Virus record (IMG/VR): IMGVR_UViG_3300045988_169357
Location: 1 to 36,262 of that record
Source: a virus
Length of the DNA: 36,262 nt
Reading direction: 5' to 3' (one strand)
Position numbers and translations under genes: made by a program. Below are positions 1 to 7,497 of the stretch, one piece after another. The stretch's first letter is position 1; every line of letters begins with the position of its first letter. Under the pieces are notes generated by a model. That model ran no database searches, was not told the DNA's origin, and worked only from the letters and a program-made list of their open reading frames with translations.

Positions 1-119
1 AAGTTTGACAATATGGAAAGTGAAATTCAAAAAACAAAAGAAAAAGGAGAAAAGAAAGAAGTTATTAATTCTTATACAAAAGAAGAATATAAAAGTGTTT
101 TAGAACTATTAAAAAAAGA
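1..119. repeat. Terminal overlap (circular-assembly closure), identical to 36144-36262
   Basis: Base-by-base reading of both ends: aagtttgacaatatggaaag...aaaaaaaga is present at both. Confidence 0.95.
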
Positions 120-633
120 AGAGCCAGGCAAAAGAATTTTAATAGAAACTGCCTTAAAAAGTGGTCTTTCTAAGGAAGAATTGTTTGGGTTAAGATGGTC
201 AGATTTTGATGTAGAAAATAGTACTCTTTCCGTTAAAGTTGTTCGATTATATACAAAAGAAACTGGTATAATAGAAAAGCAACCCAAAGCTCATAGTCGT
301 ATTAGAACAATTTCAATACCTAATTCATTGTGTGAAGCATTAAAGTCTTTTAAAACTAAATTTGATAAGAATGAAGACTACATATTTAAGGACATAAATA
401 TAAATTCAATTGGATCTTGGTTTACAGATTTTCAAAAAAGAAACAATATACGAAAAATCAGATTTCATGATTTGAGGCATACTCATGCAACTTTGCTTTT
501 ATATAAAGGTGTAGATATAAAAACTATTTCTAAAAGATTAGGACATAGTAAAATAGGAATCACAATGGATACATATACAGATGTACTTAAAGAATTGGAT
601 TTATCCGCTTCTCAAAAAATGGATGAAATATAG
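1..633 (+). CDS. int: Tyrosine integrase, C-terminal catalytic part (continues 35649..36262 across the circular junction)
   Basis: The frame is open from nt 1. It contains FHDLRHTHATLLL and LGHSKIGITMDTYTD, the HxxR and catalytic Tyr region of tyrosine recombinases. Nt 1-119 duplicate 36144-36262. Confidence 0.9.
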   Translation, partial: KFDNMESEIQKTKEKGEKKEVINSYTKEEYKSVLELLKKEEPGKRILIETALKSGLSKEELFGLRWSDFDVENSTLSVKVVRLYTKETGIIEKQPKAHSRIRTISIPNSLCEALKSFKTKFDKNEDYIFKDININSIGSWFTDFQKRNNIRKIRFHDLRHTHATLLLYKGVDIKTISKRLGHSKIGITMDTYTDVLKELDLSASQKMDEI

Positions 634-637
634 AAAA

Positions 638-659
638 TTACACCAAAATTACACCAAAA
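638..659 (+). repeat. Two tandem TTACACCAAAA repeats, candidate integrase arm-type sites (left arm of attP)
   Basis: Exact 11-mers at 638-648 and 649-659, immediately after the int stop codon. Confidence 0.5.
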
Positions 660-668
660 CCTAAAAAT

Positions 669-700
669 AAACCGCTGATATATTGAAATATCAACGGTTT
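669..700 (+). terminator. Hairpin after int (aaaccgctgatat...atatcaacggttt)
   Basis: Stem of about 12 bp with one bulge and a short loop. The trailing T-run is weak. Confidence 0.45.
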
Positions 701-712
701 ATTAAATATAAA

Positions 713-732
713 TGGTGCGGATGAAGGGACTT
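713..732 (-). other. Candidate attP core resembling a tRNA 3' end
   Basis: The minus strand reads AAGTCCCTTCATCCGCACCA. This parses as part of a T-loop, a T-stem 3' half (CCCTT), a 7-nt acceptor strand (CATCCGC), a discriminator A and CCA. It lies between the two arm-repeat clusters next to int. Confidence 0.4.
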
Positions 733-802
733 TTGGTTTTTTTTAAAACATTAAAAAGTATTGCAAATACTGGCTTTTATTGTTTTGTACATTTGCTTAA
801 AA

Positions 803-854
803 TTGCACCAAAATGATTGTTTTACACCAAAATTGCACCAAAATCACACCAAAA
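803..854 (+). repeat. Four further T(T/C)(A/G)CACCAAAA repeats, candidate arm-type sites (right arm of attP)
   Basis: ttgcaccaaaa at 803-813, ttacaccaaaa at 822-832, ttgcaccaaaa at 833-843 and tcacaccaaaa at 844-854. All share the orientation of 638-659. Confidence 0.5.
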
Positions 855-981
855 AAGTAGTTATATATTTTTCTATAATTTTATTATTAATGTTATAATA
901 TTTACATATATTGTAATAGCAATTTAATACAATTTTATCAATATTTACTTTCTCAATTTCTTTCAACATTTCTTTTTCCAT
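844..981 (-). CDS. Small hypothetical protein (45 aa), below the ORF-track length cutoff
   Basis: ATG at 981 preceded by GGGAGGAATACAT (strong SD). Translates MEKEMLKEIEKVNIDKIVLNCYYNICKYYNINNKIIEKYITTFLV. No recognisable motif. Confidence 0.3.
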   Translation of the reverse strand: MEKEMLKEIEKVNIDKIVLNCYYNICKYYNINNKIIEKYITTFLV

Positions 982-994
982 ATGTATTCCTCCC

Positions 995-1023
995 TTGACA
1001 AATTTTGTAAGGAACTGTATACT
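995..1023 (+). promoter_or_regulatory. Near-consensus sigma-A-type promoter
   Basis: TTGACA (995-1000), a 17-nt spacer, then TATACT (1018-1023). Confidence 0.55.
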
Positions 1024-1029
1024 CTAACT

Positions 1030-1107
1030 GTTACATTTGTTTAGATTAGAGTAACAATCCTTGAGAGATAGATAAGTTCCAGTTGTCTATCTCTTTTCTT
1101 TTTTTAT
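1030..1107 (+). ncRNA. Candidate small RNA (about 75 nt) between the promoter and an intrinsic terminator
   Basis: No ORF or SD is present. There is a 5' hairpin tgttac(1029-1034)/gtaaca(1051-1056). The terminator stem is 1063-1072/1086-1095, followed by ttttcttttttt. Confidence 0.4.
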
Positions 1108-1117
1108 TATATTTTAA

Positions 1118-1149
1118 TGTCGAAAAAAGTCAAGAAAAATCGTTCGACA
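1118..1149. promoter_or_regulatory. Spo0A-box-like sites upstream of the XRE/Spo0E-like gene
   Basis: TGTCGAA at 1118-1124, a degenerate AGTCAAG at 1128-1134, and an inverted TTCGACA at 1143-1149. The 0A-box consensus is TGNCGAA. Confidence 0.45.
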
Positions 1150-1231
1150 CAAAGCGTTCTCTACCAGCTACATCTAGCACTTTTTTGAATAATTATATAA
1201 AATAATAAGATACTATTTTAAGAGGTATTTT

Positions 1232-1555
1232 ATGTTTATTTTTAGAATTAAAGAGGTTAGAGAAAAGAAAAATATGACTTTATATAAATTAGAAAAAGAA
1301 ACTGGTATTAGTAGAAGCTATTTACACGCATTAGAAAATAATAAAAAAAGCAATCCTTCCTTGGCTACAATGTATAAAATTTCTAATGTATTAGATGTAA
1401 ATATAAGAGATTTATTTTATGCTACAGCAGATATAAATAGTTTAAAAGAAGAAATGTATGCCAGGATAGATAAATATGGTTTAAATTCTCCTGAAGTTAT
1501 GGAAATAAGCCATGTAATAGATTTGTTAATCAATATTGAAATGCAAGAAAAATAA
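1232..1555 (+). CDS. XRE-family HTH protein with a Spo0E-like C-terminal helical domain
   Basis: The N-terminus LYKLEKETGISRSYLHALENNKKSNPSLATMYKISNVLDV looks like HTH_3. The C-terminus LKEEMYARIDKYGLNSPEVMEISHVIDLLIN resembles the Spo0E-family SQELDxLI region. SD AAGAGG precedes the ATG. Confidence 0.7.
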   Translation: MFIFRIKEVREKKNMTLYKLEKETGISRSYLHALENNKKSNPSLATMYKISNVLDVNIRDLFYATADINSLKEEMYARIDKYGLNSPEVMEISHVIDLLINIEMQEK

Positions 1556-1564
1556 TAGAAGAGC

Positions 1565-1768
1565 TTAATACTCTTCTATTTTATACAAATCTGTTAATTC
1601 TACATCTAATGCGTAAGCAATTTTAACTGCATTATTGAATTTTATATTAATATTCCCGTTTTCAAATTTTTCTAGTTCTTTTATGTCCACATCTGCTTTT
1701 TTTGATAGTTCTTCTAATGTAATTTTTTTGCTATCTCTTATTTCTTTAACATTAATTTTTACTTTCAT
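1565..1768 (-). CDS. Small XRE-family HTH regulator
   Basis: ITLEELSKKADVDIKELEKFENGNINIKFNNAVKIAYALDV is an HTH_3 pattern. SD GTAGGAGGA is present. Confidence 0.75.
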   Translation of the reverse strand: MKVKINVKEIRDSKKITLEELSKKADVDIKELEKFENGNINIKFNNAVKIAYALDVELTDLYKIEEY

Positions 1769-1868
1769 TTTTTATCCTCCTACATATATATATATTTCCC
1801 AATTATAAAAAAATATTTTGGCATAGCAATACATTTTAACAATAATATGTATACAACAGTAAAAGAGA

Positions 1869-2015
1869 CTAACTTGCGTTAATCTCTTTCATTTTTGCAT
1901 TTATTAATTTGTCCAGCTTTTTACTTTGTCTCAATATTATGCTATATTCTTTTTCTTCTGTAATTAATTTTTCTAGTCTTGCACGGTTGCGGATTATTAG
2001 CAAGTCTATACTCAT
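1869..2015 (-). CDS. Spo0E-family aspartyl-phosphate phosphatase-like protein (48 aa), absent from the ORF track
   Basis: ATG at 2015 with SD GAGGTG (2021-2026). Translates MSIDLLIIRNRARLEKLITEEKEYSIILRQSKKLDKLINAKMKEINAS. SKKLDKLI matches the Spo0E signature SQELDxLI. Confidence 0.65.
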   Translation of the reverse strand: MSIDLLIIRNRARLEKLITEEKEYSIILRQSKKLDKLINAKMKEINAS

Positions 2016-2056
2016 TTAATCACCTCTATTAATTATAGCATATTATGTTAATTATA

Positions 2057-2075
2057 TGTGTCGAAATTTGTCGAT
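2057..2075 (+). promoter_or_regulatory. Tandem Spo0A boxes upstream of the Spo0E-like ORF
   Basis: TGTCGAA (2059-2065), ATT, then TGTCGAT (2069-2075). The 18-nt block tgtgtcgaaatttgtcga is identical to 18245-18262. Confidence 0.55.
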
Positions 2076-2080
2076 AACTA

Positions 2081-2110
2081 AAAAAAAGACTAGTTTTGCT
2101 AGTCTTTTTT
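2081..2110. terminator. Bidirectional intrinsic terminator after doc
   Basis: The sequence reads aaaaaaa-GACTAG-ttttg-CTAGTC-tttttt. The doc stop codon sits in the stem. Confidence 0.6.
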
Positions 2111-2578
2111 ATATGTTTTATTAATAATTTTAAATAAATTTTTAAACTTACTCATTTTTGATATCCTTATATATGGTTTAATTTTTTCTGTTATTTGTGA
2201 AATTGAACTTTTTTGCTCAACTATTTCTTTAACTAAACTATATAGCTCTTCATTACTACCTCTAATTTTATATCCATTCATTTCTAGGAAAATAAGTGTA
2301 GATATTAGAGCTGTTCTTTTATTTCCGTCATAAAAAGGATGATTCATCGCTAATGATCTTAAATAACATGCTGCCTTATTTATTATATCTGGATACAAAT
2401 CTTGCCCACCAAAACTCTGTTGTGGCTCATATAATGCCGATTTAAATAAGTTTATGTCCTTTATTCCTCTCATTTCATCTTTGTAACGAACCTGGCCTCC
2501 ATATTCACAAAATTTTTCATCTATTACTACCATGTGAATAAAAATTACAAATTCAGGTGTTAAATATTCTACTTCCAT
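2099..2578 (-). CDS. doc: Doc (death-on-curing) / Fic-family toxin
   Basis: HPFYDGNKRTA matches the Doc variant of the Fic motif, HxFx(D/E)GN(G/K)R. A 1-nt TAATG overlap couples it to the upstream small gene. Confidence 0.85.
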   Translation of the reverse strand: MEVEYLTPEFVIFIHMVVIDEKFCEYGGQVRYKDEMRGIKDINLFKSALYEPQQSFGGQDLYPDIINKAACYLRSLAMNHPFYDGNKRTALISTLIFLEMNGYKIRGSNEELYSLVKEIVEQKSSISQITEKIKPYIRISKMSKFKNLFKIINKTYKKD

Positions 2579-2742
2579 TAATTCTTAGATAATTTTTTTA
2601 ATGCTTCTTTAAATCTTATTGCCATTTTTGTTGCCATCTTTTGTTGTTTAGGAGAAATGTTTTTTTGCCAGTCTTCACTTAATCCTAAATCTCTAACAAC
2701 ATATGATGGTATACTATTTAATCTTTTCATCGTCCTTGTCAT
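2578..2742 (-). CDS. AbrB/SpoVT-like antitoxin partner of Doc
   Basis: The likely start is the ATG at 2742, after GAAGGAGGAG. SIPSYVVRDLGL resembles the AbrB/MazE swapped-hairpin motif. It is translationally coupled to doc. Confidence 0.65.
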   Translation of the reverse strand: MTRTMKRLNSIPSYVVRDLGLSEDWQKNISPKQQKMATKMAIRFKEALKKLSKN

Positions 2743-3134
2743 AATTTCTCCTCCTTCTTTTTCCATTACACATCACCTCATATAAATATATTATTCACTA
2801 TGTTTCTAAATGTATTCATAATTAGTAATAATATAATTATATCATAATTTATTATAATGTGCAATTATGTCTACTTGTTGTAATAGATATTTAATATTAT
2901 ATATCATTCTTCGTTACAAATTGCAATGGTTTTATTTCAAAAAATAAAACACGCCTTACAATCGATTTTAAGCCGTTTTTATTTTTAATTAATATAGTTT
3001 TATACCTCTGTTTTAAGGAGGGTTGAGTTTTTTTTAATTTTTTAATTTTCTTTGAAAAAATTGTATATATACTTATTGAATATAAATGTCCCTAATGATA
3101 TATTCATTATATAATAAAAGAAAGGAGGTCACTA

Positions 3135-3473
3135 ATGAATAATCATGATGAAAAAATCCCACATTTTAAATTTGTGGAACTACAGTCAACATTTAAAAAA
3201 TTTTTTCCACCATTAAATAATCAACAATCATTCATATTATTTAATGAACATTTTAATGCTGATAGTTTTGAATATGAAAATGGTTCCCTTTATGAATCGA
3301 TTACTTATTTAATGAATCTTTGTAATGAATCTATTCGAACAAGCTTACAAAATGTATTAACTGATTACAATATTACGGAAAATAATTCATTATCTAATAT
3401 GGATATAAACACATTTAACAATTTAATAAACTCAATAGTTAATATTTCTTTAACAGAAGAAGAGGAGCAATAG
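3135..3473 (+). CDS. Hypothetical protein (moron, opposite orientation to its neighbours)
   Basis: SD AAAGGAGG at good spacing, and a promoter-like TTGAAT..TATATT upstream. No recognisable motif. Confidence 0.6.
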   Translation: MNNHDEKIPHFKFVELQSTFKKFFPPLNNQQSFILFNEHFNADSFEYENGSLYESITYLMNLCNESIRTSLQNVLTDYNITENNSLSNMDINTFNNLINSIVNISLTEEEEQ

Positions 3474-3489
3474 CTCCTTTTCCCCTGTT

Positions 3490-4842
3490 TTATTCTTCTT
3501 TACAATAATTTAAACATATCCAACCACTTGCTGTTTTGCCCCATTTTCCATTTATTTGCGTTACTGTACAAGTTACACCTTTTAAATATCCGTTGTAATA
3601 TTGATTTCCTAATCGTTTATTTTGAACTTTAGCATTAGATGTTAATTGTTTATATGTCTTTGCAGTGTAATTTGTTCCTGCTCCTGTCCTAACGTGTAAA
3701 TTTGCTGTTGTTTTATATGTTCCTGTTGTATAACCTTTAATTGTAATGTTAGAAATAGCTGTAGATGATAAATAGCTATTACTTACCCATCCTGTTGTCG
3801 GATTTGATATTCTACTCCAATTTCTGTTTGTTTCTACTACTTTTACTGCAGTACCTTTTTTCAGTGAACTTATCACAGAACCGTTTGGTGCATTTCTTAC
3901 ATTTAAATTGCTTGATTGTGTTGCTACATATCTAGTATATGTAGCTGTGGCCACATCTTTATCTGTTGAATTAGTTGTATTTACTGAGTTTTCATCATAT
4001 CCGTAACAAAAAAACTGTTTGTAATTTGCATATTTTTTAAAATTATCTACTGTTACATAAACAGTATTACCATTTACAGTTGCTTTTCCTCTTCTTGTAG
4101 ATGTATCAAATTTTCCAGAATACAAATATGGGTCATATATCTTAATTGTATCTCCATCAATTCCATATAAAACTATGTAATGTCCTCCACTTGTGAAAAG
4201 ACCATTTCCACAACTAGAAATTATATAATGATTATTTCTTAATAAGTTTAACATATTATCAAAATTAGATGTTTCAGTATAGTCAATATCAAATTCATCA
4301 GCCACTGCACGATATGCACTCCAATATGTTCCACTATTTGCTGAACGATATCCATTTGCTACAAATGTATCTGCTAATTCTGTTACTGATACATTACCAA
4401 CTATGCTGTCAATTATCATTGCAGCACTTGCCACACCACAACCACTTGTACCTATCGTTTGGCTTGAATTTCCGACTGATGTATATGGATAATATCTCCA
4501 CCTACTATCAATTTGAGAAATATATGTTAATTGAGGTTTGCTACCTATTTTTAAATTCCATTTGTTTGATTTGTCTCCATTATATGCAATCTCTCCTTGA
4601 AGTTCAAAAGACTCATTTTCAACCTCTTGTACTTCCAATTGTTTTTCTTCTTGTTCTGTTCCTTCCGGAATTTCTGTTGTAGATTGGTTATCTACAATAT
4701 TATCTACAGTATTTACAACAGTTTCCACAGAATCGCTAATTTCTTTTACATCTCGTTCACTATAGTTGACTCCAAAAATTGCACTTGACACAGCTAAAAT
4801 AATTGTTACTATTGCAGTTATAATCATTTTTCTTTTACTCAT
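3490..4842 (-). CDS. Endolysin: N-terminal membrane anchor, C39-like cysteine peptidase domain, and C-terminal SH3b-type repeats
   Basis: The TM segment is MIITAIVTIILAVSSAIFGV. Peptidase motifs are QIDSRWRYYPY..GTSGCGVASAAM and GGHYIVLYG. The SH3-like repeats are LNVRNAPNGSVISSLKKGT..WSRI and LHVRTGAGTNY..KWGK. It occupies the last position in the late operon. Confidence 0.8.
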   Translation of the reverse strand: MSKRKMIITAIVTIILAVSSAIFGVNYSERDVKEISDSVETVVNTVDNIVDNQSTTEIPEGTEQEEKQLEVQEVENESFELQGEIAYNGDKSNKWNLKIGSKPQLTYISQIDSRWRYYPYTSVGNSSQTIGTSGCGVASAAMIIDSIVGNVSVTELADTFVANGYRSANSGTYWSAYRAVADEFDIDYTETSNFDNMLNLLRNNHYIISSCGNGLFTSGGHYIVLYGIDGDTIKIYDPYLYSGKFDTSTRRGKATVNGNTVYVTVDNFKKYANYKQFFCYGYDENSVNTTNSTDKDVATATYTRYVATQSSNLNVRNAPNGSVISSLKKGTAVKVVETNRNWSRISNPTTGWVSNSYLSSTAISNITIKGYTTGTYKTTANLHVRTGAGTNYTAKTYKQLTSNAKVQNKRLGNQYYNGYLKGVTCTVTQINGKWGKTASGWICLNYCKEE

Positions 4843-4844
4843 AA

Positions 4845-5090
4845 CTATCCAACCCCCATCCCTATTTTTATAAATAATGCTATTATAGATATAATACTTG
4901 TTATACAGGCTCCTACAGTAGTTCTAAATAGCCATTTGTTATTGTCTTGTAATTTTGCTATTTCTTTTTGGTTTTGTGCAGAAGTAGTATATGCTACTTC
5001 TGCTTTTTCCTTAATGTTCTGATAATCATCTAATTTGCTTTCTATTACTGCTAATCTTGTTAAAACCTCTGTCTCGAAAGTCTTTTCCAT
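4845..5090 (-). CDS. xhlA: XhlA-like lysis-associated membrane protein (holin-position gene)
   Basis: A coiled N-terminus plus NNKWLFRTTVGACITSIISIIALFI, resembling PBSX XhlA. It lies directly upstream of the endolysin. Confidence 0.65.
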   Translation of the reverse strand: MEKTFETEVLTRLAVIESKLDDYQNIKEKAEVAYTTSAQNQKEIAKLQDNNKWLFRTTVGACITSIISIIALFIKIGMGVG

Positions 5091-5091
5091 A

Positions 5092-5760
5092 TTATTCAGC
5101 CTCGCTTTCTACAGTTTCTTCTTCTTCTTCTGCTGATTGTTCTACTAATTCGGAATTTTCTTCTTCTAAATCTGCTATTCTACTAGTAAAAGTTTCTACG
5201 TGTTTATTATAATCTGCAATTTTTTCTTCTGCATTAGAATTAAAAGCGTTAATTTTTTCTGTGGAATTGTTGTTAAATTCTGTTGTTTTTGTTTCTACAT
5301 TACTATTAAATGTATTTGTTTTTTCTTCAACATTTGCATCAAAACTATCAGCAATATCACTTATTTCGGTTTTCTTTTCTGTAGCATTGCTATTAAACTC
5401 ATCCGTCTTTTCTTTTGCATTAGTATTAAACTCCTCTGCTTTTGTTTCTGCATTGCTGTTATAATCTTCTATTGCTGTATTAGCTTGTTTTGCAAATTTT
5501 TCTGTTTCTTGTTTCATTTTGTTTGCCAATTCAACATTTTTGTTATACTGTTCTAATATGTTATCTTCTAATGTTTTTATTTTCTCTATATCGCCATTTA
5601 TACCTATAGACACATTGGTTATAGCTTGTAAATATTTCTCGTAAATATTTGCGTCTTCATCGGTATATTCTTTATTTGGCTCGTATTCTGCTGAAGATGT
5701 TATTATTGTTTTTGTAACTAGGTTTGTTGGGATTCTTTTTACTATTTTGTCTTTTTGCAC
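5092..5760 (-). CDS. Tail-fibre-associated coiled-coil protein with 11-residue repeats (probable C-terminal part of a frameshifted gene)
   Basis: The only available start is GTG, with no SD. The frame is +1 relative to 5672..5998. (F/Y)N(S/T/N)N repeats recur every 11 residues. Confidence 0.7.
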   Translation of the reverse strand: MQKDKIVKRIPTNLVTKTIITSSAEYEPNKEYTDEDANIYEKYLQAITNVSIGINGDIEKIKTLEDNILEQYNKNVELANKMKQETEKFAKQANTAIEDYNSNAETKAEEFNTNAKEKTDEFNSNATEKKTEISDIADSFDANVEEKTNTFNSNVETKTTEFNNNSTEKINAFNSNAEEKIADYNKHVETFTSRIADLEEENSELVEQSAEEEEETVESEAE

Positions 5761-5998
5761 TAAGAAACCGAACTACACCAATCTGGTATCTGCCATTTGG
5801 TAAGTTCGGTAATACTGTTTTATTATCTACTATTTGTTGCACATATACATCAAAATCATTTATGAATAACATTTTTTTAACTAGGTTGTCCCACTCTTCG
5901 GAGAAATCAATGTCTATGTTATACAGGTCTATTGCTTTCGCATACGTATTTTCTGTTTCTACTATTTCTAAATAGTCTTTTTTTACTTTAAACTGCAT
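5672..5998 (-). CDS. Tail-fibre-associated protein, N-terminal part
   Basis: ATGA start/stop overlap with the fibre gene. The last ~29 codons (SAKRQNSKKNPNKPSYKNN..) look out of frame. Confidence 0.65.
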   Translation of the reverse strand: MQFKVKKDYLEIVETENTYAKAIDLYNIDIDFSEEWDNLVKKMLFINDFDVYVQQIVDNKTVLPNLPNGRYQIGVVRFLSAKRQNSKKNPNKPSYKNNNNIFSRIRAK

Positions 5999-7497
5999 TA
6001 TAACACCTCTTCTTCCGTTGTTTTTGTATATTCTAATGTTACATAACCATTAAACATACTCCTATCACCGTCAGTCTGTATTTCTATTGTTGTATTATCA
6101 ACAGCCAATGCTGTATTGTAAAACATTTCTGTATTCTTGTATACTAGTGGCAAAGATTGCGTAAATTTTGTTTCATCATTTCTTATTGCTATACCCTCTA
6201 TTTTTGTAAAAATACTTATATTACTTATATTGTGTTGTACTTCTTTTTTGGTTGCATTAGGTAATGTTCCAAAATTTATAACTTTTCTATATATTGTCTT
6301 GCCATCTATCCAGGTGCCTACTGCTTGTTCCTCCGTTGAATAAGTGCTGTTCCTTGTTATTTTTTCATTTAGTTCTTTCCCTTGTTTTGCGCTTAAAGCA
6401 TCTGTTGCGCTTGTACTTTCTAAACTGTTTACTACTGTAGCAACTAATCCAGCACTTTGTTTTGCTTTTATTATGTAGGCCGCTACAAATGAAGGTTGAA
6501 TGTTGTTATGTGGTTGTGAGCCTCCAGTTTTCCCTGCTAAATCATCTCCTGTGTAAAGATATTGATTTGCTGGAACAGACCAACTGTATGCAGCTTTGCC
6601 TGAATTTCCACTGTTTCCTCCAGCCAACGATTGCTTGTGGTTATGTTCTGGCATTTCTTTTATTGTTAATGTATGTGTCTTTTCTCCAATAGTTTTTCCT
6701 ATTGTGTTAAAATCTGCATCGTCTGCATTTAATCCAACAATAGTTCTTCCTTTTATGTTTGGAAGATTAAATGTTGTACTTCCATCTCCTTCTCCAAAAG
6801 TGGTTCCGATTATAGCGAATAAATGATTATATTCTGTTCTATCTAATTCACTTCCATCACAAACAAGCCAATTTTCAGGAGCAGTTGCTTTGGGATATGG
6901 CATTATAGAACCTACCGGCAATGTATCGCCTGTTGCACTTCCTCCTCCAGTTTGGTTTACCCATTCTACATCGTTATCTGTATCTGTTTTTTTGGCTAAT
7001 ACTTGTCCTGTTGTTCCTCCAGTTGGGATTAATTTTGCTTTATCTTCGTTTGTGTAGTCGTTTGTGCTCAGTCCTTTTCCTTTTTCTTTGTCTACTTTAT
7101 TATTTAGGGTTTTTTTAGCTGCTGTTGATATTGGCTTATCTAAATCAGCTGTGTTATCCACATTATTTAATTCTACATCCTTTTTGTTTAAGACTATATT
7201 CACAATTTTATTTGCAATAGAAATATCTTTTCCATTTTTTTGTATTTTTTCAATTACATTAGATTGTGCTTCTTTTTCTATATTATCTAATTTTTCTTTG
7301 TCTTCTTTACTCATAAAGCCACTTAAATCTGCTGTTGCATTTTTATGTACTAATTGTGTATTTTTAGTATGTGCGTCAATTTTATTATCTAATTTATCCC
7401 AGTTTTCATTTAGTGCTTTATCTATGTCAAATTCTTCTTCACCATCTTTTTCTGGTTCCCATTTAAATAGGTTTAATAAATTTGTAAAAACACTCAT
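5998..7497 (-). CDS. Tail fibre / receptor-binding protein with a phage tail-collar domain
   Basis: LPVGSIMPYP..PENWLVCDGSELDRTEYNHLFAIIGTTFGEGDGSTTFNLPNIKGRTIVG matches the tail-collar domain pattern. Confidence 0.85.
   Translation of the reverse strand: MSVFTNLLNLFKWEPEKDGEEEFDIDKALNENWDKLDNKIDAHTKNTQLVHKNATADLSGFMSKEDKEKLDNIEKEAQSNVIEKIQKNGKDISIANKIVNIVLNKKDVELNNVDNTADLDKPISTAAKKTLNNKVDKEKGKGLSTNDYTNEDKAKLIPTGGTTGQVLAKKTDTDNDVEWVNQTGGGSATGDTLPVGSIMPYPKATAPENWLVCDGSELDRTEYNHLFAIIGTTFGEGDGSTTFNLPNIKGRTIVGLNADDADFNTIGKTIGEKTHTLTIKEMPEHNHKQSLAGGNSGNSGKAAYSWSVPANQYLYTGDDLAGKTGGSQPHNNIQPSFVAAYIIKAKQSAGLVATVVNSLESTSATDALSAKQGKELNEKITRNSTYSTEEQAVGTWIDGKTIYRKVINFGTLPNATKKEVQHNISNISIFTKIEGIAIRNDETKFTQSLPLVYKNTEMFYNTALAVDNTTIEIQTDGDRSMFNGYVTLEYTKTTEEEVL

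Follow-up and report, generated by a model that had tools for sequence, protein, structure and literature searches.

The window analysed here is a stretch of viral DNA of 36,262 nucleotides (positions 1 to 36,262 of the IMG/VR virus record IMGVR_UViG_3300045988_169357). On its minus strand, an open reading frame (ORF) at 1869..2015 encodes a Spo0E-like protein of 48 amino acids (aa), MSIDLLIIRNRARLEKLITEEKEYSIILRQSKKLDKLINAKMKEINAS. The gene sits between the lysis genes and the end of the prophage, where the cargo varies, and it is preceded by a ribosome-binding site, an extended -10 element and two candidate boxes for the host sporulation regulator Spo0A (Table 1). We describe the gene, its control region and the circuit that they may form with phosphorylated Spo0A (Spo0A~P).

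The 48-aa gene and its protein family

The initial annotation had read this ORF with an ATG start and a well-spaced GAGGTG Shine-Dalgarno sequence, and both were borne out (GAGGTG at 2026-2021, 5 nt before the ATG). Re-reading also returned an identical translation and placed it on the minus strand, which the annotation had left unstated. The ATG at 2015 is the sole possible start because the in-frame triplet directly 5' of it is TAA. Homologs carry a purine-rich GGTG or GGAG in the place equivalent to the Shine-Dalgarno sequence. The G+C content of the window is 28%, and 41 ORFs of at least 30 aa are found within its first 6 kb. Short ORFs are abundant in such DNA, and therefore an ORF of 48 aa is not significant alone.

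It is conservation that identifies the ORF as a gene. The identical protein is listed in 46 blocks of the public collection and is carried by all 22 contigs read. There are 44 close homologs with more than 70% identity; a profile search with diverse members of the family retrieved 843 relatives, and an exhaustive HMMER search with the family gave 176 clusters at 50% identity. In the clade of the 48-aa protein, the mean pairwise ratio of nonsynonymous to synonymous substitution rates (dN/dS) is 0.10, and the variable sites number 11, 11 and 32 at the first, second and third codon positions. Thus, the homologs, the dN/dS and the codon-position pattern confirm that 1869..2015 is a real gene under purifying selection. 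Gene callers usually call it, and an intact copy, MSIDLLIIRNRARLEKLITEDKKYSIILKQSQKLDKLINRKMKEINES, was left uncalled in two contigs (L191 and L192, about 3650-3800, minus strand). The remark of the initial annotation that short-ORF filters easily drop a gene of this size is true of these two contigs, and surveys built on called genes under-count the gene because intact copies are left uncalled.

The protein had been likened to the aspartyl-phosphate phosphatases of the Spo0E type. A Pfam scan agrees, in that its sole match is PF09388 (SpoOE-like; 20.2 bits, E 5.9e-4). This family is also matched at E<=0.01 by 31 of 33 close homologs (best 1.1e-5) and at E<=8e-5, which is about the gathering level, by 17 of 44 diverse homologs (best 2e-7). 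Precomputed PF09388 matches exist for relatives of the protein, and two relatives bear the NCBI name 'Spo0E family sporulation regulatory protein-aspartic acid phosphatase'. The Pfam scan gave no match to PF08671 (SinI), no Spo0E model was matched in an NCBIfam scan of the protein, and tblastn of the protein against phages and plasmids found nothing. A weak match in PHROGs (E 0.0039) offered the identity 'membrane protein', which we judged implausible.

The string S-x-x-L-D-x-L-I, on which the assignment had partly rested, is present as S31-K-K-L-D35-K-L-I38. Across 44 homologs, down to 31% identity, the invariant residues are L14, I27, L28, Q30, S31, K33, L34 and D35, which include the Ser and the Asp of the signature. 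Members of the Spo0E family are 40-100 aa long and two-helical and bear an SxxxD motif; in Spo0E of Bacillus subtilis, the Asp of this motif is critical (PMC11115286). AlphaFold2, given the shallow alignment A1 as input, predicted the antiparallel two-helix hairpin that had been expected (helices 3-19 and 24-47, mean pLDDT 93.7). The narrow family profile built on A1 found 2BZB as its best match in the PDB (E 0.011), spanning the S..LDKLIN helix, with eYskILkQSkKLDKLiNkKmk aligned against DHDKVLLFSRDLDKLINKFMN; a broader profile, A2, matched it more weakly (E 0.61). We take 2BZB to be the Spo0E-like protein BA1655 of Bacillus anthracis. Together, sequence and predicted fold support the view that the 48-aa protein is a divergent member of the Spo0E-like family, as first annotated. 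The conserved tandem Spo0A boxes of its promoter, which the initial annotation had not noted, back this assignment independently.

The promoter and the boundaries of the cassette

The coding strand 5' of the gene reads ATCGACA-aat-TTCGACA-(21 nt)-TGcTATAAT-(5 nt)-GAGGTG-(5 nt)-ATG. The two boxes (2059-2075, TGTCGAAattTGTCGAt) agree with the consensus and the 3-bp pairing of 0A-box promoters. Bacillus and Clostridioides difficile share TGTCGAA as their Spo0A box, and a perfect box predicts binding; dimers of Spo0A bind pairs of boxes 3 bp apart, with activation or repression as possible outcomes (PMC3485338, PMC2731898). The window contains 6 perfect TGTCGAA boxes against 1.13 expected, and the tandem pattern with at most 2 mismatches occurs twice against 0.09 expected. 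The proximal box doubles as a misplaced -35-like element, TCGACA, 21 nt from the -10 hexamer, and there is no usable -35 element at 17 nt. At spoIIG and spoIIE, which are sigma-A promoters activated by Spo0A, the -35-like element lies 22 bp (spoIIG) or 21 bp (spoIIE) from the -10 element. From this layout, transcription would start near 2025.

We compared the upstream regions of homologs from 40 metagenome-assembled genomes, 13 viral contigs and further metagenome contigs. In the 51 anchored regions, conservation is 90-100% at each position of TATAAT and 88-92% at the TG. Of 54 non-redundant loci, 46 have at least one perfect TTCGACA upstream, where the background is 0.09 per kb. Between box and hexamer, 36 of 52 regions have a spacer of exactly 21 nt, and 45 have one of 20-22 nt. 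When the regions were aligned on the -10 element, information content peaked only at the two boxes and at TGnTATAAT, and the spacer varied freely. By a composite measure, a score of 2 or less is reached by about 47 of the 58 true upstream regions; of 2880 segments of 130 nt taken at random from the same loci, those that score 3 or less all overlapped true upstream regions. About 50 non-redundant loci, with protein identities as low as 34%, retain the layout of boxes and promoter, and the conservation of the boxes spans dozens of host lineages. Within the literature that we searched, this conserved Spo0A-box cassette is a new observation on the control of a Spo0E-like gene.

The cassette also appears to be closed at both ends. 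The terminator 5' of the boxes, which ends the upstream operon, is conserved in most prophage copies irrespective of the cargo that lies upstream. At the 3' side, a hairpin of -10 kcal/mol or lower is found at or after the stop codon in 40 of 53 distinct homolog 3' ends, and the sequences of these hairpins differ. Because a 3' hairpin is kept in most homologs, the gene looks like a monocistronic, self-contained cassette of about 250 bp with predicted terminators on both sides, in the order upstream terminator, tandem boxes, 21-nt spacer, TGcTATAAT, ribosome-binding site, ORF and terminator hairpin. An Rfam scan matched no known RNA at the region of the 48-aa gene; its only match was a tRNA at 17785-17855.

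Copies of the cassette are not confined to prophages. Some are chromosomal, among housekeeping genes (L070-72), and others lie in conjugative-element-like regions that adjoin TraG-type coupling proteins (L060-62 and L067-69); the promoter architecture is the same in all three settings. Since chromosomes and conjugative-element-like regions of related bacteria hold the same cassette, the most likely origin of the phage copy is the capture of a host-type regulator along with its promoter.

Table 1. Features of the window, with positions counted from its first nucleotide
Feature	Position	Strand	Remarks
48-aa Spo0E-like coding sequence	1869..2015	minus	ATG 2015-2013, stop TAG 1871-1869; S31 and D35 form the SxxxD signature
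Shine-Dalgarno sequence GAGGTG	2021..2026	minus	5 nt ahead of the ATG; read directly
Extended -10 element TGcTATAAT	2032..2040	minus	conserved in 51 anchored upstream regions
Proximal candidate Spo0A box TTCGACA (TGTCGAA on the plus strand)	2059..2065	minus	21 nt 5' of the -10 hexamer
Distal candidate Spo0A box ATCGACA, 6/7	2069..2075	minus	3 bp from the proximal box, 10-bp phasing
Terminator hairpin and U-tract	2082..2110	minus	ends the upstream antitoxin/Doc operon; dG -13.8 kcal/mol, z -6.4
14-bp hairpin, likely terminator	1860..1891	minus	overlaps the last codons and the stop; dG -21.4 kcal/mol, z -7.4
107-aa HTH_3 and C-terminal Spo0E-like fusion	1232..1555	plus	PF09388 33.8 bits, above cutoff; convergent on the XRE gene
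67-aa XRE-family helix-turn-helix protein	1565..1768	minus	own promoter-like site at 1829-1802
Small antitoxin-like gene, then Doc toxin	2099-2766	minus	
Tail genes, holin, lysin	3490-5090	minus	
95-aa ORF, N-terminal zinc ribbon and C-terminal membrane helix	17898-18185	minus	boxes 62-78 nt upstream
Second tandem pair of candidate Spo0A boxes, perfect, TGTCGAAattTGTCGAA	18247-18263 (+ coordinates)		serves a minus-strand ORF; 21-nt spacer, TGaTATACT

A proposed feedback on Spo0A~P and its alternatives

We consider it fairly likely that the 48-aa ORF is a Spo0E-family 'moron' of a temperate phage of uncultured low-G+C gut Clostridia, and that it serves as a Spo0A~P-induced brake on Spo0A~P. In this way the phage would probably damp the decision of its host to sporulate. 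Judged from the sequence, the wiring is most likely a negative feedback loop, in which Spo0A~P switches the gene on and the product inactivates Spo0A~P. As phosphorylated Spo0A accumulates in the host, a dimer would occupy the tandem boxes, at about -50 to -34, and would activate the sigma-A promoter as it does at spoIIG and spoIIE. If the protein behaves as other members of its family do, its two helices would dock on the receiver domain of Spo0A, and the invariant Asp35 of SxxxD would be used to remove or block the phosphoryl group. Spo0A~P would then drop, and sporulation and other Spo0A-dependent programmes would be delayed or capped by a negative feedback that the phage supplies. In lysogens, sporulation would be capped or delayed, and an infected cell that is starting to sporulate would be held in a phage-supporting state.

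The protein resembles Spo0E, YisI and YnzD of B. subtilis and BA1655 and BA5174 of B. anthracis in its two-helix hairpin and in S-x-x-L-D-x-L-I-N on helix 2. The Asp is essential in the Bacillus group, and the corresponding Asp35 is invariant in the 44 homologs compared. The phage protein differs from this group in its 48 aa, which is near the minimum size, with no C-terminal tail; in SKKLD (subfamily consensus SQKLD) instead of SQELD; and in being phage-carried and below the Pfam cutoff. Control differs as well, since spo0E of B. subtilis is controlled through AbrB, whereas the subfamily of the 48-aa protein has tandem Spo0A boxes directly at its genes. By its description, Spo0E of C. difficile (53 aa) is similar in being clostridial, about 50 aa long and two-helical with SxxxD; as a repressor of sporulation it is predicted to sit over the phosphorylation site of Spo0A, but it is chromosomal, binds RstA and controls toxin production and motility (PMC11115286). 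A promoter and Spo0A boxes are not described in that paper.

Spo0E-like genes of phages and prophages have been reported in genome surveys, some of them beside RRNPP quorum-sensing systems, and PF09388 matches at E<1e-5 are reported to be prevalent in the Gut Phage Database of human gut phages (Bernard et al., bioRxiv 10.1101/2021.07.15.452460; PMC10075063). Those genes are likewise phage-borne Spo0E homologs proposed to manipulate host sporulation. They were found by their adjacency to quorum-sensing receptors, whereas control of the 48-aa gene is apparently direct, from Spo0A boxes, and of the neighbouring genes that were scanned, none showed an RRNPP-type receptor domain. With its E-value of 5.9e-4 for PF09388, the 48-aa protein would be missed by surveys at E<1e-5. 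Phage promoters with host Spo0A sites, including pairs 3 bp apart, are known from phi29 and Nf, where the boxes also couple phage expression to the sporulation state of the host; their effect there is repression of lytic promoters and of replication, which leaves the phage genome trapped in the spore (PMC2731898). In contrast, the boxes of the window stand in a spoIIG-like, presumably activating geometry ahead of accessory genes, one of which would target Spo0A itself. Phage spo0E-like genes are thus already known computationally, and what is new is the divergent member and its Spo0A-box wiring.

Several points weigh against the feedback brake. The score of the protein's own sequence lies below the gathering score of PF09388 (23 bits), although 17 of 44 diverse homologs match at about that level. 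A phmmer search of the protein against PDB sequences gave no match. In a Foldseek search of the PDB, every hit was a generic helical hairpin with E>1, and the top 50 included no Spo0E-like structure; Foldseek is uninformative here because a 48-residue hairpin is indistinguishable from other helical hairpins. The inferred start near 2025 gives a leader of only about 10 nt, whose 5' end falls within the Shine-Dalgarno sequence, and the extended -10 promoter could be active without Spo0A. Boxes that overlap the core promoter repress in phi29 and Nf (PMC2731898). Furthermore, Spo0E of C. difficile also acts via partners besides Spo0A, namely RstA, and a Spo0E protein of one species does not complement in another (PMC11115286). 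Because of this second partner and this species specificity, the target of the 48-aa protein could differ from Spo0A.

The objections to the promoter can be assembled into an opposite wiring, which is possible although we regard it as unlikely. Here, the extended -10 element would make the gene constitutive in the lysogen and Spo0A~P at -50 to -34 would repress it. Consequently, the phage brake would act only at low Spo0A~P and would be released once the host commits to sporulation. The early promoters of phi29 and Nf, repressed through boxes that overlap the core promoter, are the precedent, and TGnTATAAT promoters can function without a -35 element. The spacing is hard to reconcile with this wiring. 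There is no usable -35 at 17 nt, and the -35-like TCGACA is placed exactly 21 nt, or 20-22 nt, from the -10 element at the high frequencies given above; a -35-like element at 21 nt is a hallmark of the Spo0A-activated spoIIG and spoIIE.

The feedback brake presupposes that the target is Spo0A. It is distinctly unlikely that the protein, with fold and motif retained, is instead an adaptor that acts mainly by binding another host regulator, either an RRNPP-type protein such as RstA or another response regulator, in the control of motility, toxin or metabolism. This idea draws on C. difficile, where Spo0E is an RstA-binding protein whose control of toxin and motility does not depend on Spo0A, and on the presence of Spo0E-like proteins in non-sporulating species (PMC11115286). 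It also draws on the divergence of the subfamily, which is under the Pfam cutoff and has invariant Q30 and K33, residues that do not belong to the signature quoted for the family. However, the subfamily is linked to the Spo0A circuit by its conserved Spo0A boxes, neither the Ser nor the Asp of catalytic type varies, and the sporulation gene spoIVB is present in at least one host lineage. An adaptor role and the feedback brake can be compatible side by side.

A pair of the SinI/SinR type was considered because the window encodes a second Spo0E-like protein, the 107-aa fusion of a helix-turn-helix (HTH) domain with a C-terminal Spo0E-like domain. In such a pair, the 48-aa protein would heterodimerise with the C-terminal domain of the fusion and block its DNA binding, so that it would work a phage switch and not be a Spo0A phosphatase. 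We find this very improbable. In the window and in many prophages, some 300 bp separate the two genes, which share one prophage-end module; both proteins bear a Spo0E-like domain; the HTH part of the fusion has its best NCBIfam score with SlrR; and BLASTP aligns the two proteins with 33% identity over 33 residues (E 0.02). The arrangement resembles SinI/SinR and SlrA/SlrR of B. subtilis, in which a small helical protein is found near an XRE-type HTH protein with a related C-terminal helical domain. The phage proteins differ from these pairs in that they are weakly similar, their genes occur independently and the domain is Spo0E-like, not SinI-like. Comparison by hhalign gave a probability of 28.5% over 23 columns with 30% identity, in the second helix only. 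None of 40 genome loci with homologs of the 48-aa protein (34-83% identity) has an HTH-Spo0E or XRE neighbour; chromosomal and conjugative-element-like copies of the small gene stand alone; L186-189 and L193 have the HTH-Spo0E gene but lack the small one; and the small gene has its own promoter and terminators. The weak similarity and the independent occurrence of both genes speak against this pairing, and we rejected it as the main explanation.

Finally, a chance ORF in AT-rich DNA is already refuted by conservation: short ORFs commonly arise by chance at 28% G+C, and an antisense ORF of at least 36 aa is also retained in 13 of 14 variants, but chance does not fit the dN/dS and codon-position pattern given above, the hundreds of homologs with an invariant motif, or the joint conservation of ribosome-binding site, promoter and terminator.

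The prophage, further tandem-box genes and host sporulation

The window begins and ends with the same 119 nt (1-119 and 36144-36262), a terminal direct repeat, and an intact integrase gene spans the junction. Because of the repeat and the closure of the integrase gene, the window represents the complete genome, assembled as a circle of about 36.1 kb, of a temperate phage. Among deposited phages, nothing exceeds about 62% identity to its large terminase, and megablast of window positions 1-6000 against deposited phage genomes found nothing. In integrated copies, the end of the element at which the 48-aa gene lies abuts host genes that differ from contig to contig (ftsY, ychF, pyruvate kinase, NUDIX). 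The stretch from the lysin to the 48-aa gene is a cargo hot spot, which holds the small antitoxin-like gene and Doc in the window and, in other prophages (L001-L006, L063-L066 and L186-L193), SecB-like, SocA/Panacea-like, PIN, M78 peptidase or SNF2/PAPS-reductase/ParB genes. Beside one prophage that carries the 48-aa gene, the host DNA encodes a SpoIVB-type protease with PDZ and Peptidase_S55 domains (L190, 353-1597, minus strand). The presence of this gene points to a spore-forming host lineage for that prophage; together with the conservation of the boxes across host lineages, it is indirect evidence of hosts that have Spo0A and the sporulation pathway.

On the other side of the cassette, the 67-aa XRE gene belongs to the conserved prophage-end module, outside the Spo0E cassette. 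The 107-aa fusion retains the SxxxD motif as SHVID, where its family has the consensus SQiIDLLIN. The HTH-Spo0E architecture is common to more than 120 protein clusters; all examined contexts are at prophage ends, and the gene occurs there with or without the small Spo0E-like gene. This DNA-binding Spo0E fusion might be a Spo0A-sensing regulator. Two perfect Spo0A boxes, inverted, at 1118-1124 (plus strand) and 1143-1149 (minus strand), lie between a minus-strand 45-aa ORF (844-981) and the HTH-Spo0E gene. The TTCGACA box about 90 nt 5' of the ATG of the HTH-Spo0E gene is common to the two alleles of that gene, whose identity is about 60%. The 45-aa ORF is driven from 1133-1106. On the plus strand, a near-consensus promoter (995-1023, TTGACA-17-TATACT) is followed by a hairpin and terminator (1063-1095) with a T-run. 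Together these elements (within 995-1105) would give a transcript of about 75 nt that overlaps the leader of the 45-aa ORF in antisense, and the region is conserved in related prophages; the transcript may be a small antisense RNA.

The second tandem-box pair of the window precedes a 95-aa zinc-ribbon ORF that is inserted between the head-morphogenesis and scaffold genes. Directly 3' of this ORF, inside the structural block, is a tRNA-Trp gene (anticodon CCA, 17782-17855, minus strand). The exact pattern TTCGACA-N3-TTCGACA-N21-TATAAT is found in 113 contig stretches of IMG/VR, where by a rough estimate chance would give about one or fewer. We read 80 of these 113 stretches (L073-L152). Nine matches precede Spo0E-like ORFs, and the others precede recurring small proteins: double zinc-ribbon proteins of about 84 aa, TM2-like proteins, a 58-aa family that begins 'MNEAYNKSLQMMKYLK...', a 97-aa family that begins 'MGLF...', and membrane proteins. 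The recurrence of such proteins behind one pattern, together with the second cassette of the window, suggests a set of putatively Spo0A-responsive phage accessory genes that share the tandem-box promoter. Tentatively, the unit of tandem 0A boxes, 21-nt spacer and TGnTATAAT may be a portable, Spo0A~P-triggered cassette of gut-Clostridia phages, with the Spo0E-like member as a feedback anti-dormancy device; we hold this wider proposal to be possible rather than probable.

Sporulation governs the persistence of gut Clostridia and their passage from host to host, and it also shelters the cells from phage attack. If the feedback brake is real, prophages would have a simple Spo0E-Spo0A circuit with which to reset the sporulation threshold of gut bacteria that are abundant but uncultured. 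The Pfam cutoff of E<1e-5 in earlier surveys under-counts the Spo0E homologs of phages, and gene callers sometimes skip the gene. The conserved 45-bp promoter element offers a handle by which other sporulation-responsive phage genes may be found by sequence alone. If the wider proposal also holds, the cassette would fire small accessory genes as the host begins to sporulate, and conjugative elements would probably use it too. Its Spo0E-like member would keep an infected or lysogenic cell vegetative, so that the phage is still able to replicate or be induced.

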